Virus record (IMG/VR): IMGVR_UViG_2585428174_000001
Span: 1-38,102 of that record
From: a virus
Strand: one strand, 5' to 3'
DNA: 38,102 nt
The notes under the pieces were generated by a model. It saw only the letters and a program-made list of their open reading frames with translations. It was not told the origin of the DNA and searched no databases. Positions 12,939 through 37,950 of this stretch are shown one piece after another (the first letter of the stretch is position 1; every line of letters begins with the position of its first letter). A program made the position numbers and the translations under genes.

Positions 12939-13904
12939 CTATTTTACCTTTATATTTCTAAATACTGCAGCCGCTTTACTTGCCTTTAATGCTAATGCTG
13001 CTATCATTTCTACTTCACCATTCTTTACTGCCCCGCTAGTTGAAAAGTCTGGCAACCATGTCTTTATTGGTGCTTGCCCCGCCATAGATACAGCGTGCAA
13101 CCCATCAAGGCCTAATCTAGCAACATAAAGAGAAGTTGCCCCCGAAGTGCCATCTGTTTTAACAACATCTTCATTACTTCCAGCCTTAGTTCCTAAATCC
13201 ACGAATGGAATAGTTCCGTAGCTTTCCACTTGCTGTCCAAAGTCATTTTTAGTTGTTTGGTACATGCTTGCCCTTCTTGCACATGCCCTCAATTTAGCTA
13301 TAAGTTTAGAGTTACCAGCTATAAAAGTAGGAGTACCATCTAAGCCGGTCATAAATTCATCTAGCATATCTAAAAATGCCATGTAGTTAGACGTAATTGC
13401 CGCACTTGTAGATAAATCTATAACTACCTTATCAGCACCATTGTTATATTCTGTTGATGATCCTGTTAATGCTTTTTCAAGTCCATCAAATGCTTGTGCA
13501 TCTACTGCACTGTCACCATTGATGAAAGTATCATTAAATAGTGCCTTTGCTGCTTTAATCTTCTGTGCCTGCTGTAATTCTACCTCTGATACAATTCCGC
13601 CCATATTGGCAATAACCCTATCAATCTGATAGCTACCACCAAATACCTTAAGAGTAGTATGGAATTGCTCTTTAGTAACTTCTCCTGGTGTGTATTCTTT
13701 GTTAATCTCTCTGAATCCAGCTGTTGGTTGTGTTTTTAATCTAGTATAGGAGTATGTCATTGTTGCTCCTCCACCTACTGGGGACACAACATCATCAAAT
13801 GTTAGATTGTCTAGTAAAAAACTAGACTTTCTAAATTCATCAATAACCCCTATTTGTAAATCATCCTGTACGTTTTTACTTGCCTCTGCTAATGTAACTG
13901 CCAT
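12939..13904 (-). CDS. Major capsid protein
   Basis: 321 aa, immediately downstream of the scaffold gene. Called by position and size. Confidence 0.75.
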   Translation of the reverse strand: MAVTLAEASKNVQDDLQIGVIDEFRKSSFLLDNLTFDDVVSPVGGGATMTYSYTRLKTQPTAGFREINKEYTPGEVTKEQFHTTLKVFGGSYQIDRVIANMGGIVSEVELQQAQKIKAAKALFNDTFINGDSAVDAQAFDGLEKALTGSSTEYNNGADKVVIDLSTSAAITSNYMAFLDMLDEFMTGLDGTPTFIAGNSKLIAKLRACARRASMYQTTKNDFGQQVESYGTIPFVDLGTKAGSNEDVVKTDGTSGATSLYVARLGLDGLHAVSMAGQAPIKTWLPDFSTSGAVKNGEVEMIAALALKASKAAAVFRNIKVK

Positions 13905-13921
13905 ATTATATCACCTTTCCT

Positions 13922-14506
13922 TTATTGGTTTATTTGTCCTTGAAGTTTAGCTGCTATTGCGTCTTTCATACTTACATTTGTTCCTTGTGGCTTAGGATTT
14001 CCACCATCTGCACCAACTTTAAATCCCGGTTGTGGTGTTGGTTCTGGACTATTTTCAGGTTTAAATAAAAAGCCTTTGCTCTCCTTTAAACTTTTAAGTT
14101 GTTCATCTAAGCCTGTTATCTTGCCATCATCATTTAGTATTAACTTAGACTTATCAAACAAGTCAGCAACTAAATCTGTATCCATAGCCTTATCTGCAAT
14201 AGCCATCTTAATAGCATTGCTTACTTGTAAATCCTTAAGCTTTGCTTGGTACTCTATGTCCTTAGCCTTGTTGTCCTCTTGTAATGTCTCTATCTGCTTT
14301 TTAAGAGCCTCACCGTCAACCTTTTTAAGGTCTTCTAATTGAGTGTTTCTTTCAGCAATAGTCTTCTCTAATTCTTTTTTACTGTTGTTGACTTCATCAA
14401 ATCGTGTCTTAGGAATATAAGTTTCTAATTCTTTCTTACTCTCCGCCTCTGCTTTTGTTGCTAAATCTTCTGTAAGTCCTAATGCTATAAATTGTTGTTT
14501 ATTCAT
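13922..14506 (-). CDS. Capsid scaffolding protein (GP20-like)
   Basis: Highly charged coiled-coil protein upstream of the capsid gene. ATG at 14506 follows AAAGGA; the ORF track starts 9 nt earlier. Confidence 0.7.
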   Translation of the reverse strand: MNKQQFIALGLTEDLATKAEAESKKELETYIPKTRFDEVNNSKKELEKTIAERNTQLEDLKKVDGEALKKQIETLQEDNKAKDIEYQAKLKDLQVSNAIKMAIADKAMDTDLVADLFDKSKLILNDDGKITGLDEQLKSLKESKGFLFKPENSPEPTPQPGFKVGADGGNPKPQGTNVSMKDAIAAKLQGQINQ

Positions 14507-14630
14507 ATTTACCATCCTTTCAAATTCATTTTTTAGCCCGGTTCAGTCCGGTACCATTTGTCTTATTAGTTAACGCCCATAATACCAAAATGGCGAAAAT
14601 AAAAAGCCTTATTTAATAAGACTTTCTTTT

Positions 14631-14780
14631 TTAAACAATACATATTAAAATTCCTAATAGTAAATTATATATAGCATTTGTAATATTCCCCTTATTCTTT
14701 TCTCTTGATGCTTCAATCAATGCGTATATTACGTACATTCTTGTGATAATGAGGTATGTAATCTTAATCACCATGTACAC
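14631..14780 (-). CDS. Small hydrophobic protein (49 aa, below ORF-track cutoff)
   Basis: AAGGAGG lies 5 nt before the GTG at 14780. There are two hydrophobic segments, and a hairpin plus U-run follows the stop codon. Confidence 0.45.
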   Translation of the reverse strand: MYMVIKITYLIITRMYVIYALIEASREKNKGNITNAIYNLLLGILICIV

Positions 14781-14826
14781 TTAAACCTCCTTTCTTAATT
14801 TTGAGCATAATAAAAGCACCTACTTT

Positions 14827-14973
14827 TTATTTAGTAAGTGCTTTATACTCTTGTACTATCTCTCCGCATTTTAATGAACTCATAAACTGTTCATATTCTT
14901 CCTTTACCCACTGTGGAGAATTCTCTTTAATTTTAAGACCATCATCATCATAATAATAATAATCCGTATCCAT
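14827..14973 (-). CDS. Small acidic protein (48 aa) directly downstream of the MuF-metallopeptidase gene
   Basis: ATG at 14973 lies 2 nt downstream of the MuF stop codon (14978-14980). The sequence begins MDTDYYYYDDDG... A terminator hairpin overlaps its 3' end. Confidence 0.45.
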   Translation of the reverse strand: MDTDYYYYDDDGLKIKENSPQWVKEEYEQFMSSLKCGEIVQEYKALTK

Positions 14974-14977
14974 AAAT

Positions 14978-16762
14978 TTAGGTCTTTCTAGCTCCAACTT
15001 TATTTCCCTCCTTGATATGATATTTTATTTTCTTATCCAACTTTTCCCCAAATAGTTTAGCAAATTCTCTTGGGTTATCACCGCCAAAATACTCTGCAAA
15101 AGTCTCTGCGAATAATTCTGCATGTTTAGTGCCGGCATATTCTCCGACTAATGTTGCCATGTCTTTAAAAGTATATTCTGTACTATATTTTTTATTATAG
15201 TCGCCTATTACCTCACTAACAAATTCTTCACACCAATTCGTGTTTCCACCATCAAGCCATTTAAGTCCATCCGCAACATTATGTCCATATTCGTGTACAA
15301 AAGTTTTATACTCTTTTGCGTTAGGCACAGTCCATTTCTTCTCAATGCATTTTTCTATATACTTCTTATTATACTCTTTATCTGAGAAAAAAGCACCGTT
15401 TAATGTTAACTCACAAGCCCCTGGCCGGTTCGCATAGTATGAGTATTTTCCTACAGCATTCATGTTAGCTTTTACTTTTAATATTGGTAGCTTAACCGGG
15501 TTAATCTCTTGGAATCCTTTAAAGTAGTTATTAAATTTATCCATCCAATTAACTGAATCCTGTAACAAATCCTTGTCTATAGGGTATTTTCTGCTATCGC
15601 TAAAATCTAGAGAGTATTTATCTCTCATATGTTTTATTATTTCTTTCTTATTATTGTAAATAGTTTTAACTGGTGTAGCTCCTCGCCATGTTTTTATATT
15701 TCTTATACTTTGCCATTGTTGTTTCTTATACTTATATCTTTCTATATTATCTTTGTCTAAACTATAACTACTAAGCCTATCATACTTTTTTATTTGTCTA
15801 TTTATATAGTTTTCCCTCTGTTCTCTATTAAATATGTCTATACTCTTTTGTTGTTGCTCTTTAGTTGTAGTCTTCGGTGGTGTTGAAATACCTTCAAAAT
15901 AAGTTGTATGAGAATCTTTACAATTAGGATGATAGAATCCAGCTGCCATTGCACTACTTAGTAATGGATAGGGTCCATCTTTAGAAGTTCCACCACTCCA
16001 TACATCATCTATAAAAATCTTACCTTGAAATGGTACACATTTAGGACAACCACCTCCACGGCTTATGGTTATTACTGTACTTATGCCCCACTCCTGTCTT
16101 TTAGCACCTTCTCCTTGCAAGTATGCTCTTTTATTAGCCGTTTGAATTGCCATGGCTGCATAATCTGCTATATTAACTCTAGCACCATTCTTATACTCTA
16201 TGCAATTAATACCCTTACTTAAGAAGTCCTTAGTTGCCATATCTACGCATTGCTCATATGTTCCACTTCCTGTATTAGCATAAACCTGTGCATTAAATAT
16301 CGTTTTTCTGTATTCATCATTGGCTTTTCTTAGCATAGCAACCTCTGCTTTTGCCATGTCTTGCTTAGTAGCTTTTATGAGAGCATTGAGTTTTCTATCA
16401 TTTATTTTAAAGAATTTGCCCTCTGTAATTAAGTCTGTAACTTTAGGTCTTATTCTAGGTCTAAATCCATTCTTTATAGCTTCTAATATTTCTATTTCAG
16501 CTTCCATATTGCCGGCTATATATGACTTCTCAATCATCTCTTCTATCTCTTCATTTATCTCTGAGAATCTATGTTTGAAAGCTTTTTTATTTCTCTTTTT
16601 ATACTCTTGTAAGCTTTTTAATTGTTCAACTTGCCACATGGTCCAGTCAAACCCTTCTTTGTTTTCCCAATTCCTATGCCTTTTATAATTCCTCAGCATA
16701 GAATCAATCAATTCTTTCTCTATAGCTCCGAATGCTTCTGCAACATCATAATCTTTCTTCAT
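14978..16762 (-). CDS. Minor head protein (MuF/SPP1 gp7-like) fused to a C-terminal M34/ATLF-like zinc metallopeptidase domain
   Basis: MuF-type region with GGGCPKC...FYHPNCKDS. The C-terminal domain has HEYGH (aa 490-494) and a downstream AELFAETFAEYF, matching the HExxH...E..FAE.F pattern of lethal-factor-like peptidases. Confidence 0.8.
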   Translation of the reverse strand: MKKDYDVAEAFGAIEKELIDSMLRNYKRHRNWENKEGFDWTMWQVEQLKSLQEYKKRNKKAFKHRFSEINEEIEEMIEKSYIAGNMEAEIEILEAIKNGFRPRIRPKVTDLITEGKFFKINDRKLNALIKATKQDMAKAEVAMLRKANDEYRKTIFNAQVYANTGSGTYEQCVDMATKDFLSKGINCIEYKNGARVNIADYAAMAIQTANKRAYLQGEGAKRQEWGISTVITISRGGGCPKCVPFQGKIFIDDVWSGGTSKDGPYPLLSSAMAAGFYHPNCKDSHTTYFEGISTPPKTTTKEQQQKSIDIFNREQRENYINRQIKKYDRLSSYSLDKDNIERYKYKKQQWQSIRNIKTWRGATPVKTIYNNKKEIIKHMRDKYSLDFSDSRKYPIDKDLLQDSVNWMDKFNNYFKGFQEINPVKLPILKVKANMNAVGKYSYYANRPGACELTLNGAFFSDKEYNKKYIEKCIEKKWTVPNAKEYKTFVHEYGHNVADGLKWLDGGNTNWCEEFVSEVIGDYNKKYSTEYTFKDMATLVGEYAGTKHAELFAETFAEYFGGDNPREFAKLFGEKLDKKIKYHIKEGNKVGARKT

Positions 16763-16770
16763 TTTATCAC

Positions 16771-18411
16771 CTACATTTGTTCTTCCATGAAGGTTTCAGC
16801 GACTTCTCTACTTATTCCTAAAGATGATGAAATAATAGATATTGCACTGGCTCTTGTTATATTGCCAGCTTTTACATTCTCAATAACCTTAAGCATTGAT
16901 TGAATTTGAGCACCATTTAAAAGGCTTGAAGTTGATGTTTCTTCTATATCCTCATCATCCATACTAACCTCAGGTTCTTCCATGCCTACAACTCCATTTT
17001 CCTCCTTAAGCCTTGCTATTTCCTCTGCCTTTTCCTCATCAGTCCAAGTATCTCCATAAAGTTCTTCAATGCATTGTTCAGTTGACATTATTCCATAACT
17101 TTTGGCCTTGCCTACAGTCTCAACCTTATTGTCAAATGAAGGGCTTGCATATTCTCCAAAGCTTATAGTAATTTCATACTCTTGTGGATTCTTACTATGC
17201 ATTAAATCCTGCACTTTCAATACTATATCAACAAGTCTTGGTATTACTTCCGTTAAAGAATCAACTATCTTTCCTCTTGTGTAAAGAGTTGCTTTTTCCT
17301 TCTCTCTTTGAGCTTCTGCATTATCTGTTTTCTTTAGATCTATTCCTAATGTGGCCGGGCTTATGATACCCTGTAGGCACATATCTAAGTTGCTAGCATA
17401 GGTATTTACATAAGCTTCGTAGTTTATAGATGGTTGTTGTATACTGATTTCATCTGAACCATTCTCCTTCATACTAGAGCCTACTGCTATGAATTTATTG
17501 TCAAAACTATTTGGTTTTAGTGATTCCCCTGTGGTTGGATTCTTGGGTATTAGGTCCTCTGGTATATATTGTTTTACTCTTCCATCTCTTATAGCGTCAA
17601 TCCATTGCGATACAGTTTCGTCCAGTGCGTCAAAGCTATCTGACTTAGTATCAAATATACTTTTGCCCCTATTGATAAATTTATGAGACTTAAAGAATTT
17701 CATAGGTATACCCATTATGAAGTCACCAGTAAAGGTTGTATCTAACAAACTACTAGTCTCTTCTATGGCTGTTATAGGCACTTCTTTTCCTTCATGATTG
17801 TATAATTTATATCTTATATACCCTCGTCCAAACACCTCTTCTAGCCTATAATCTTTACTGCCTACTGTATAATTTGTATAGAATAATATCTCTTGGAGCC
17901 TTCCACGTTTGAAATTGTAATCTACTTTTTCACCACTGTAATATTCTATTATTGGGTATGGCGTCAAGTCTGTGTCTATCGTTATTTTAAAAGCACCATC
18001 TCCTGTTACAAGTGTTTCTCCTATGGCTTCACCTAATAACTCATTAAACTTATTATCTTTGCTTATTTCGTCCCATATGGCCCGTAAACCCTTATCGTCT
18101 ATATCAATGCTATCTACATCTGACACTACCATATCAGCAAGCCTGTCAACTATCATTGCTGGTAACCCACTATGAACCTTTCTAACGTTTAAATCGTTTG
18201 AGGGAACTGCCGCCCAAAATCTAGACTTTGAGACAAGATCATAAGCACTCTGTTTGAAAAATTGGTCTAGCTCACTAGCTTCACCACGATACCATATTCT
18301 ATTTTTCATGACATTACCTTCAAAGCTTAAAGGCTCTCTTATTGTTATTTTCTTATCTTGTGCGGGTTGTATATTTAACATTTTTATCACCAACTTTTTA
18401 AACCAATTCAT
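16771..18411 (-). CDS. Portal protein (SPP1 gp6-like)
   Basis: 546 aa, located between TerL and MuF, with an acidic C-terminal region. Confidence 0.85.
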   Translation of the reverse strand: MNWFKKLVIKMLNIQPAQDKKITIREPLSFEGNVMKNRIWYRGEASELDQFFKQSAYDLVSKSRFWAAVPSNDLNVRKVHSGLPAMIVDRLADMVVSDVDSIDIDDKGLRAIWDEISKDNKFNELLGEAIGETLVTGDGAFKITIDTDLTPYPIIEYYSGEKVDYNFKRGRLQEILFYTNYTVGSKDYRLEEVFGRGYIRYKLYNHEGKEVPITAIEETSSLLDTTFTGDFIMGIPMKFFKSHKFINRGKSIFDTKSDSFDALDETVSQWIDAIRDGRVKQYIPEDLIPKNPTTGESLKPNSFDNKFIAVGSSMKENGSDEISIQQPSINYEAYVNTYASNLDMCLQGIISPATLGIDLKKTDNAEAQREKEKATLYTRGKIVDSLTEVIPRLVDIVLKVQDLMHSKNPQEYEITISFGEYASPSFDNKVETVGKAKSYGIMSTEQCIEELYGDTWTDEEKAEEIARLKEENGVVGMEEPEVSMDDEDIEETSTSSLLNGAQIQSMLKVIENVKAGNITRASAISIISSSLGISREVAETFMEEQM

Positions 18412-35872: not shown

Positions 35873-36352
35873 ATGAATGTAGGTGAAAGAATTAAATCTT
35901 TGAGAATTAGCAAAGGATTAACCCAGGATGAACTTGCTAACAAAATAGGGGTAAAGAAAGCTGCCGTTTATAAATACGAATCTGGAATAATAGAGAATAT
36001 AAAAAGATCTACCATTCAGGAAATGGCAAAAATTTTTGAAGTTTCTCCATGCTACCTATTAGGTTGGGAGGATGACTCCTCACAATTATTCAAATTAGAA
36101 TATGAAGAAAAAGCTCTGCTAGAAAACTTCAGAAAACTAAATAACTTTGGTAAAAATGAAGCAAAAAAAAGAGTTGAAGAACTTACATATATAAATAAGT
36201 ACATACATAACGATGAGATGTGTGCTGCGGTAGCTGAAGAAAAAGCCGAATATTTAATTCCAGTTGCAGCACATGCTGATGATTTAACTGAAGAAGAGAA
36301 AGATGAAGCAAACAAACTATTTGATGAATTTTACGACAAGTGTAAGAGATAA
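35873..36352 (+). CDS. XRE-family (cI/ImmR-like) prophage repressor
   Basis: The N-terminal segment GERIKSLRISKGLTQDELANKIGVKKAAVYKYESG is a canonical HTH_3. Confidence 0.85.
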   Translation: MNVGERIKSLRISKGLTQDELANKIGVKKAAVYKYESGIIENIKRSTIQEMAKIFEVSPCYLLGWEDDSSQLFKLEYEEKALLENFRKLNNFGKNEAKKRVEELTYINKYIHNDEMCAAVAEEKAEYLIPVAAHADDLTEEEKDEANKLFDEFYDKCKR

Positions 36353-36355
36353 GGG

Positions 36356-36784
36356 GTGATGCTCTTGGAGTATAGTATTTTGGTTAATGAAGTATTAAAC
36401 AAAGGGATTGTTTTTAAAGAAATTCCACTTAGTCACAATAAAGAATGGGGATTATGCAAAGGCAATGTTATTGCTGTAAACAAGAATTTAAACAACGTGC
36501 AAAAGAAATGTGTCCTTGCTGAAGAGCTAGGGCATTTTTACACAACAGTTGGGGATATAACCGACTTATCAGATATATGCAATGCCAAGCAAGAAGAATT
36601 AGCACGTAGATATGGTTATAAAAAGCTAATACCAATACAAGACTTAATTAAAACTTTTAAAATGGGACTAAGATTCGATTATGAAATAGCTGAAGAACTT
36701 GGTGTAACCATAAATTTTTTACACGCATGTGTGAATTATTATAAATGTAGATATGAAACAAATAAGTACCTTAAGGAGGGGTAA
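36356..36784 (+). CDS. ImmA/IrrE-like (M78) protein with an atypical EELGH motif
   Basis: Located directly after the XRE repressor and before int. The motif LAEELGHFY occupies the place where HExxH is expected. Confidence 0.6.
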   Translation: MMLLEYSILVNEVLNKGIVFKEIPLSHNKEWGLCKGNVIAVNKNLNNVQKKCVLAEELGHFYTTVGDITDLSDICNAKQEELARRYGYKKLIPIQDLIKTFKMGLRFDYEIAEELGVTINFLHACVNYYKCRYETNKYLKEG

Positions 36785-36786
36785 TT

Positions 36787-37950
36787 GTGGCGATAAAAAC
36801 CAACTATGAAAAGAATGGTAGCAAATATTTTAGAGTTACCGCCAGCATTGGAAGAGATTCTTCAGGTAAATTAATAAGAAAAGAGTTTTATGGGAAAAGC
36901 AAAAAGGAAGCTGAGCAAAAAAGAGATGAATATTTAGAAGACGTGAGAGCTGGAGCTAACAATCGCAGTACCATCCAATTAGGCACGTTTCTCTATACTT
37001 GGCTATTTGAAGTGGTTAAATTATCCGTTAAACCTTCTACCTTCGAACGATATGAAGGTATATATAGAAATTATATAAAGGATACAGCCCTATATACTCT
37101 TATATTAAAAGATGTTTCTACCATGCAAATACAAAAACATTACAATAAACTCTTTAGTGATGGTTGTACCAGTAGCATGATCTACAATCTTAATAAACTT
37201 TTAAAGAAATTTTTCAACTACTGTGTATTACAGGGTTACATAGTAAGAAATCCATGTGATGCAAAAAAGATAATAATACCAGAAGATACAACAAAAAATA
37301 AAACACGTGAAATTGAAGTGTTTACAGATGAAGAATTAGAACGCTTAAAGAATGAAATTAAAGGTGATAGACTTGAAGCCTTGTATCTATTGGCACTTGG
37401 TACTGGAATGCGTGAAGGTGAGCTTTTAGGCTTAAAATGGCAAGACATTAATTATGATGAGCAAACCATAGATATAAAAAGAAGTGTAAAAAATGTAGCC
37501 AATATAGATAGCAATGGAAACAAACGATATCAAATTGTAGTGCAAGCACCCAAAACAAGGGGTTCAGCAAGAACGATTCCAATGCCTTCAAAATTAATTA
37601 CTTCTTTAAAAAATCACAAGAGAATGCAATTACAAGAAAAGTTTAGAGCTGGTAGTTCCTATAATGATAATGATTTTATATTTACCACAGAACTTGGAAC
37701 AAATATAGATGCTTCAAACTTGCTTAAAAAGTTTAAGAAAATATTATTGAAAGCAAATATACCTTACAGAAAATTTCATGCTTTAAGGCACACATTTGCT
37801 ACTAAACTATTTGAAAATGATGTCCCTATAAAAACAGTACAAGAATTGTTAGGACATAGCAATATGTCTATAACAGCTAATATATACACACATGTAATGC
37901 CAAAGAAAAAAACAACTGCTGTTGAGACATTAAATAAATATTTCATATAA
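36787..37950 (+). CDS. int: Tyrosine recombinase / phage integrase
   Basis: HALRHTFATKLF and LLGHSNMSITANIYTHV (R..H.R..Y catalytic pattern). GTG start follows GGAGGGG. Confidence 0.92.
   Translation: MAIKTNYEKNGSKYFRVTASIGRDSSGKLIRKEFYGKSKKEAEQKRDEYLEDVRAGANNRSTIQLGTFLYTWLFEVVKLSVKPSTFERYEGIYRNYIKDTALYTLILKDVSTMQIQKHYNKLFSDGCTSSMIYNLNKLLKKFFNYCVLQGYIVRNPCDAKKIIIPEDTTKNKTREIEVFTDEELERLKNEIKGDRLEALYLLALGTGMREGELLGLKWQDINYDEQTIDIKRSVKNVANIDSNGNKRYQIVVQAPKTRGSARTIPMPSKLITSLKNHKRMQLQEKFRAGSSYNDNDFIFTTELGTNIDASNLLKKFKKILLKANIPYRKFHALRHTFATKLFENDVPIKTVQELLGHSNMSITANIYTHVMPKKKTTAVETLNKYFI

Follow-up and report, generated by a model that had tools for sequence, protein, structure and literature searches.

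We describe here a gene pair in a virus sequence of ~38.1 kb (IMG/VR record IMGVR_UViG_2585428174_000001, positions 1 to 38,102; "the window" hereafter), in which a minor head protein of the MuF superfamily carries a C-terminal zinc-metallopeptidase domain related to anthrax lethal factor (LF), and in which a small acidic open reading frame (ORF), referred to below as the partner, overlaps the 3' end of the gene for this fusion protein (Table 1). Comparison with related loci shows that the peptidase domain, or zincin, and the partner form a mobile cassette that is exchanged between unrelated MuF scaffolds. We propose, with a probability that we put at about 55%, that the fusion protein serves a temperate phage as a polymorphic effector of the MuF family, that is, a virion-delivered protease with a cognate partner.

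The identity of the C-terminal domain was examined by motif conservation, by profile searches and by structure prediction. An exhaustive profile search returned 1117 representatives at an E-value of 1e-3 or better, and conservation was scored over 86 full-length relatives that are 15-49% identical to the query zincin. Among these relatives no columns are invariant except H490, H494 and E549, while E491, Y542, F551, A552 and E553 are conserved in at least 90%; because the three residues remain invariant over 86 divergent proteins, the HEYGH motif is more than a chance occurrence of HExxH. Eleven close homologues furthermore retain HExGH, Tyr183, Glu190 and an FAEYFGG..PR.FA block. A preliminary description of this DNA, made from the sequence alone, had placed HEYGH correctly and had counted 52 residues from there to AELFAETFAEYF; the latter begins at residue 548, and the gap is 53 residues. 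The catalytic Tyr and the third Zn ligand Glu are Y728 and E735 in LF and Y178 and E185 in PPEP-1, and the Tyr-to-Glu spacing of 7 residues is identical in LF and in the window zincin.

A direct sequence search of the zincin domain against the PDB gave no match, and the sole PDB match of a profile built from close homologues was LF (E 1.4e-3), with HEFGH and YGRTNEAEFFAEAF of LF set against the HExxH and the Y..E.FAEAF block of the zincin family. The AlphaFold (AF2) model of the domain has a predicted local distance difference test score (pLDDT) of 92.5 and a predicted template-modelling score (pTM) of 0.90. When this model was compared with the PDB by Foldseek, ranks 1-5 were all LF (probability 0.99-1.0, template-modelling (TM) score 0.4-0.53) and ranks 6-31 were mostly PPEP-1/Zmp1/PPEP-3, with probabilities of 0.6-1.0 and TM scores of 0.33-0.53 over the ranks and with Peptidase_Mx (4l7a) and MtfA/M90 (3dl1) interleaved among the PPEP matches. 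In Pfam, ATLF (PF07737) is the commonest match within the C-terminal family: it is found in 11 of 12 close members (best E 4.7e-5) and in 24 of the 86 relatives (best E 3.3e-11), and one relative, P0056 (profile E 1e-21), scores 56.4 bits, which is above the curated cut-off. Conserved HExxH, a downstream Glu in E-x-F-A-E, a Tyr at 7-residue spacing and M34 peptidases as the closest solved structures are found together in this domain.

Judged by sequence and predicted structure, the domain is an LF-like zincin related to M34, one of a divergent family and not a curated member of ATLF; we prefer this wording because the ATLF score of the window protein itself lies below threshold. The preliminary description had claimed an M34/ATLF-like metallopeptidase at the C-terminus, and this claim is upheld by ATLF as the best Pfam family, LF as the best PDB sequence match, and LF and PPEP as the best folds; profile and fold searches alike assign the C-terminus to a peptidase fold, and homologues keep both HExxH and the downstream Glu. 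A weak PHROGs match of the isolated C-terminal domain to "HNH endonuclease" was judged spurious, a search of NCBIfam returned nothing relevant, and neither DNA nor tblastn searches with the zincin against 50,697 annotated phages gave a match.

The N-terminal part of the protein matches Phage_min_cap2 (PF06152) over residues 7-352, at 132.6 bits against a cut-off of 26.3, and phrog_581 "minor head protein" at an E-value of 4e-80. Jamet et al. 2017 (PMC5576092) place PF06152 within the MuF superfamily under the name "MuF2", and a profile score above the curated cut-off coincides here with a gene position directly after the portal gene and with terminase genes upstream. The domain shares 40-57% identity with MuF proteins of three phages, namely Clostridium phage CP51, Streptococcus phage Javan351 and Anaerostipes phage AC844P2. 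The preliminary description had called the first ~290 residues MuF/gp7-like. Membership of the superfamily stands, but the family is PF06152 and not Phage_Mu_F proper, and the domain is longer than was assumed. Since the Pfam match extends to residue 352, the Lys/Gln-rich stretch at approximately residues 300-360, which had been read as a linker, is instead the conserved tail of the PF06152 domain; in the short MuF protein of CP51 (412 aa) the model likewise ends 14 residues before the stop.

The partner accompanies the zincin with high regularity. A partner homologue of 47-78 aa adjoins the zincin in 61 of the 63 loci retrieved via the zincin, down to 26% zincin identity (56 of 58 when counted by distinct full-length zincin proteins), and starts within a few bases of the stop of the zincin ORF. 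When the partner alone was used as query, a zincin was found upstream in 29 of 32 viral loci and in three of four divergent partner clusters of the database. The family comprises 139 database clusters, all of 46-114 aa and none of them named, and the window partner is identical to database protein P0211. No Pfam or PHROG matches to the family were found, and none of the 139 clusters holds a natural zincin-partner fusion. Its members are uniformly acidic (mean net charge -7) with a predicted fold of a beta-hairpin and a helix, and the partner appears to be cytosolic, being small, acidic and devoid of a long hydrophobic segment. The partner ORF is not mentioned in the preliminary description, nor did we find a description of its family in the available text of Jamet et al. 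2017 (PMC5576092), where small downstream ORFs are handled generically; the partner family and the mobility of the cassette are modest additions of the present analysis.

At the RNA level, the hairpin that spans the partner stop codon has a folding energy of -21.5 kcal/mol (z = -5.9), and none of 200 shuffled sequences was equally stable; together with the U-rich run that follows, it forms a terminator-like end of the portal-MuF-partner unit. A scan for consensus terminators (stems of 5 or more pairs, 3 of them G-C, and loops of 3-8) missed the hairpins later found by folding, in this instance probably because the loop or the inner stem exceeds the limits of the scan. The pair is split in a single locus (L018 / L076, IMGVR_UViG_2713897210_000003), where the zincin and partner genes, 553 nt apart, are separated by a 171-aa ORF whose product is predicted to have a hydrophobic segment at its N-terminus. 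As for partner homologues that lack a neighbouring zincin, one comes after a 973-aa protein in which a minor-tail/tape-measure domain is recognised, and another is located ~1.2 kb after a TMP_3 tape-measure gene, near helix-turn-helix (HTH) and methyltransferase genes.

The case for mobility is built on ~20 distinct loci in which the zincin is 59-64% identical to that of the window (from ~residue 367) and the partner 48-70% identical, and in which the portal, MuF residues 1-366 and the capsid protein are without detectable similarity to their counterparts in the window. The MuF proteins of these loci belong to Phage_Mu_F (PF04233) and not to Phage_min_cap2, and similarity to other zincin cassettes starts at ~residue 367 (nt ~15664). 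The phages that are closest in the MuF2 N-terminus (CP51, Javan351 and AC844P2) possess neither a window-type zincin nor the partner. We also considered that the partner might go with MuF2 genes in general and rejected this, as it is absent from the closest MuF2 phages and present after zincin-bearing PF04233 MuF genes. The identities of zincin and partner vary together (Mantel r = 0.71, 0 of 2000 permutations). In one locus, L081, the region of the C-terminal domain has been replaced and the partner gene retained at 83-86% nucleotide identity, the DNA similarity to L037/L087 breaking exactly across the C-terminal domain region. This orphan partner resembles the orphan arrangements of contact-dependent inhibition (CDI) and Rhs loci, and polymorphic toxin systems exchange C-terminal toxin/immunity modules in the same manner as the zincin and partner are exchanged here. 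The MuF protein of L081 (PF04233; L081:778-3168) ends in 290 residues that are unrelated to the zincin family yet contain HESHH, and its gene is followed by a new small ORF and then by the retained partner homologue.

The MuF-zincin architecture is not new, the class having been catalogued in 2017, and it is widespread among the relatives. A MuF Pfam domain is present in 73 of the 86 full-length proteins (60 Phage_Mu_F, 13 Phage_min_cap2), and in nearly all 86 the zincin ends ~30 residues from the C-terminus. Fold matches in BFVD (E 1e-7 to 3e-6, TM up to 0.71) derive from uncultured Siphoviridae and Mycobacterium phage Rope and bear the names "Lethal factor", "Minor capsid protein" and "MuF-like minor capsid protein"; comparable MuF-zincin fusions are therefore already in public annotation. 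These proteins are the best structural matches in the viral library, yet their sequence identity to the window zincin is 16-21%, and no experimental characterisation of them was found in the literature searched.

More elaborate arrangements occur as well. Four giant phage proteins of 1176-1880 aa (P0056, P0074, P0142 and P0153) combine a MuF domain with three tandem HExxH...FAEAF zincins and a C-terminal DUF3626, and in P0151 (1419 aa) a portal domain (Phage_portal_3) is fused to a C-terminal zincin. The MuF2 proteins of Javan351 (L109, 2495-4524) and AC844P2 (L110, 225-1988) are 54-57% identical to the window protein at the N-terminus and carry other C-terminal extensions. That of Javan351 contains HEFGH...ESEFFAHVFEAQF, which by eye is another LF-like zincin, and is followed by an unrelated acidic ORF of 85 aa; that of AC844P2 bears HNHP...SxxD, a motif that hints at a JAB/MPN peptidase. 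Pfam assigned no family to the C-terminal extensions of Javan351, AC844P2 and L081.

How might such a protein act? SPP1 gp7 and 80alpha gp44 are known as capsid proteins that are ejected together with the DNA. By analogy with them, the MuF2 domain would position the fusion protein at the portal within the capsid, from where it would leave with the DNA at infection; 80alpha gp44, itself a MuF protein, has been described as an ejection protein (PMC12323379). The cargo would be the C-terminal LF-like Zn-metallopeptidase, which sequence and model predict to be catalytically competent, as its Zn ligands are invariant and its catalytic Glu and Tyr at least 90% conserved over the 86 relatives. H490, H494 and E549 are predicted to bind zinc, E491 to act as general base and Y542 to stabilise the transition state. 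Once in the cell, the protease may, in the early phase of infection, cut a single host protein or a small number of them, possibly a defence, regulatory or envelope factor. The partner, whose association with the zincin is evident from the loci, would most likely be an inhibitor or immunity-like neutraliser, or else a chaperone, and would keep the protease harmless in the producing cell. The preliminary description had framed the protein as a MuF polymorphic toxin, in agreement with the literature (PMC5576092, PMC3482391). More tentatively, and with doubt outweighing confidence, we suggest an undescribed, self-contained protease-inhibitor (toxin-immunity) cassette for LF-like peptidases that hops between MuF1 and MuF2 proteins of Firmicute phages, with the protease, injected along with the DNA, cleaving a particular defence or regulatory protein of the host and with the partner representing a new class of small zincin inhibitor.

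Several points weigh against an effector role as proposed. The C-terminal 235 residues reach 18.2 bits on ATLF where the curated cut-off is 27.4, so that the gathering threshold is not attained, and the Foldseek E-values against the PDB are just ~3e-3 at TM scores of ~0.5. A fold search with the partner model returned noise alone (all E-values above 2) and hence no recognisable fold relatives, and a few partner homologues exist without an adjacent zincin (L094:2983-3153, L095:2944-3135 and L102-L104:3495-3644). Co-divergence of adjacent genes shows co-inheritance, not binding, and the protection of a lysogen would not be accounted for simply by expressing the partner along with the late operon. 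It should also be noted that packaging, ejection, proteolytic activity and target are all things that we infer, and that the literature searched yielded no experimental study of any MuF-zincin.

The principal rival explanation holds that the zincin is a processing or morphogenetic protease, which would cleave MuF, scaffold or head proteins in cis or in the procapsid, or would trim around ejection, with the partner timing or restraining it. There are grounds for this idea: the head module of the window includes a scaffold gene yet no dedicated prohead protease was found in it, autoprocessing has been proposed as a main role of zincins in phage polyvalent proteins, citing P1 and N4 (Iyer et al. 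2017, PMC5512222), and the two to three zincin copies situated between other domains of the giant relatives would fit self-cleavage. Nevertheless we regard it as unlikely. The MuF2 relatives nearest to the window build their heads with a short MuF protein (412 aa in CP51) or with other extensions, and without a window-type zincin; the same zincin and partner are encountered on unrelated head modules, with replacement in L081; and the window protein has nothing C-terminal of the zincin to release. A cassette that is dispensable for, and portable between, head modules weakens the case for a role in head processing. A role in interbacterial killing, in which particles released from lysogens would kill or arrest non-lysogenic competitors and the partner would be a true immunity protein for kin, equals model (b) of Jamet et al. 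2017 (PMC5576092), and would suit the exchange of the cassette and the orphan partner gene, both typical of toxin/immunity loci, as well as the temperate nature of the element. What makes it distinctly unlikely in our opinion is that immunity would require expression of the partner in the lysogen, and this is not evident because the partner overlaps the MuF gene in the late head operon and no separate promoter was detected ahead of it; moreover, Jamet et al. expect peptidase cargos to be only moderately toxic (PMC5576092), and a handful of molecules per virion limits killing.

Two further explanations have little to recommend them. With PPEP-1/Zmp1 and PPEP-3 among the best fold matches, and with a surface factor suggested as substrate in the preliminary description, the zincin could be imagined as a released or extracellular protease, freed as unassembled protein at lysis, with proteins of the cell surface or the environment as its targets, in the way that PPEP-1 targets adhesins. 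We consider this very improbable, as the domain is joined to a head protein of the capsid interior, 73 of the 86 relatives are likewise MuF fusions, the partner appears to be cytosolic, and no N-terminal secretion signal was seen on reading the sequence, no signal-peptide predictor having been run. Equally improbable is a degenerate or purely structural domain devoid of catalysis, next to a small ORF that is an unrelated conserved head-module gene. The sub-threshold ATLF score and a partner without known fold or family would be in keeping with it, but across very divergent relatives the Zn ligands never vary and at least 90% keep the catalytic Glu and Tyr, and the partner tracks the zincin, not the MuF family or the remaining head module.

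The setting of the gene pair is that of a phage head operon. The window is one complete public contig. Almost every gene of it lies on the minus strand, and by its sequence the window looks like a temperate siphophage-like element of a Clostridia-type phage. The head-module genes are ordered TerS-TerL-portal-MuF-scaffold-capsid; the portal gene (16771..18411, phrog_533) encodes a protein 61% identical to the portals of the Clostridium perfringens phages CP51 and phiCp-A, and the gene for the MuF-zincin fusion starts 8 nt downstream of it. The integrase, the XRE repressor and the ImmA-like protease give the element the temperate character that is associated with MuF polymorphic toxins. The ImmA/IrrE-like metalloprotease is a second zinc protease of the element and is unrelated to the MuF zincin. 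Between the MuF/partner unit and the scaffold gene there is also a hydrophobic ORF of 49 aa (MYMVIKITYLIITRMYVIYALIEASREKNKGNITNAIYNLLLGILICIV; 14631..14780, minus strand) with a GTG start and its own AAAGGAGG, flanked upstream by the hairpin at ~14803..14850 and downstream by a hairpin with a T-run at ~14596..14632 (-10.1 kcal/mol, z -2.0). Its position between two hairpins is a moron-like layout; it has no PHROG match, and a homologue is absent from the related loci compared.

Table 1. Coordinates of the gene pair, its domains and signals, and other features of the window.
Feature	Position	Strand	Remarks
MuF2-zincin fusion gene	14978..16762	-	594 aa, from ORF list
MuF-superfamily domain (Phage_min_cap2 / "MuF2")	15686..16762	-	residues 1-359; Pfam match 7-352
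LF-like zincin domain	14978..15685	-	residues 360-594 + stop codon; AF2, Foldseek, profile vs PDB
HEYGH	15281..15295	-	residues 490-494; H490, H494 predicted Zn ligands; E491 predicted general base
Y542...E549 (YAGTKHAE)	15116..15139	-	predicted catalytic Tyr and third Zn ligand Glu; start of ELFAETFAEYF helix
Acidic partner ORF	14827..14997	-	56 aa, TTG start; overlaps MuF-zincin 3' end/stop by 20 nt
Shine-Dalgarno AAGGAGG	15007..15013	-	within zincin coding sequence, 9 nt upstream of partner TTG
Strong RNA hairpin across partner stop codon, then U-rich run	14803..14850	-	from folding
Scaffold protein	13922..14515		head module
Major head protein	12939..13904		head module
Lysogeny module	35873..37950	+	opposite strand to head genes
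XRE-type repressor	35873..36352	+	159 aa
ImmA/IrrE-like metalloprotease	36356..36784	+	142 aa; phrog_87
Tyrosine integrase	36787..37950	+	387 aa

Enzymes packaged in the capsid belong to the earliest phage proteins that a newly infected cell encounters, and MuF protease cargos are without a known substrate. The locus offers a compact and tractable pair in this respect, consisting of a 230-residue protease with clear catalytic residues and a 56-residue partner that is predicted to bind or inhibit it. If the proposal is true, the partner would found a new family of small zincin inhibitors, and the protease could provide a route to those host proteins which are put out of action when temperate Clostridia-type phages enter.

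Among known peptidases, the zincin is most readily compared with LF and the PPEPs (MEROPS M34; PF07737), with which it shares HExxH, a Glu ligand ~55 residues downstream in an E-x-F-A-E helix and a Tyr 7 residues before that Glu. It differs from them in sequence (12-16% identity, TM ~0.4-0.5, below the Pfam cut-off) and in context, as it has no secretion signal or protective-antigen (PA)-binding domains, is fused to a head protein and is accompanied by a dedicated small partner. There is also a likeness to the polyvalent proteins of phages, of which zincin peptidases (MPTase) and MuF are hubs and for which autoprocessing roles have been suggested (Iyer et al. 2017, PMC5512222): in both cases a zincin would accompany the invading DNA in virion-associated multidomain proteins, and distant relatives of the window domain occur in 1-3 kb-long polyvalent proteins in up to three copies. 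Compared with these, the window protein is reduced to a minimum of two domains and has nothing downstream to process, and the Pfam polyvalent MPTase model is not among the Pfam matches of the window protein or its close homologues.

The closest parallel is with the MuF polymorphic toxins. Capsid delivery of polymorphic toxins by MuF was predicted by Zhang et al. 2012 (PMC3482391), who also defined an anthrax-lethal-factor-like toxin peptidase, and Jamet et al. 2017 (PMC5576092) report 191 MuF toxins, with metallopeptidases in 20% and a small downstream ORF after 89%; the zincin family of the window may be among the "unknown C-terminal extensions" of that study, given its sub-threshold ATLF score. 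With these toxins the window shares a MuF N-terminus, a gene position after the portal, a temperate element, a variable enzymatic C-terminal domain, here a 235-residue zincin after PF06152, and a small downstream ORF, represented by the 56-aa partner, as well as the exchange of C-terminal domain and partner between scaffolds. Our finding hence mainly confirms, and slightly extends, a class of phage proteins that was described in 2012-2017.

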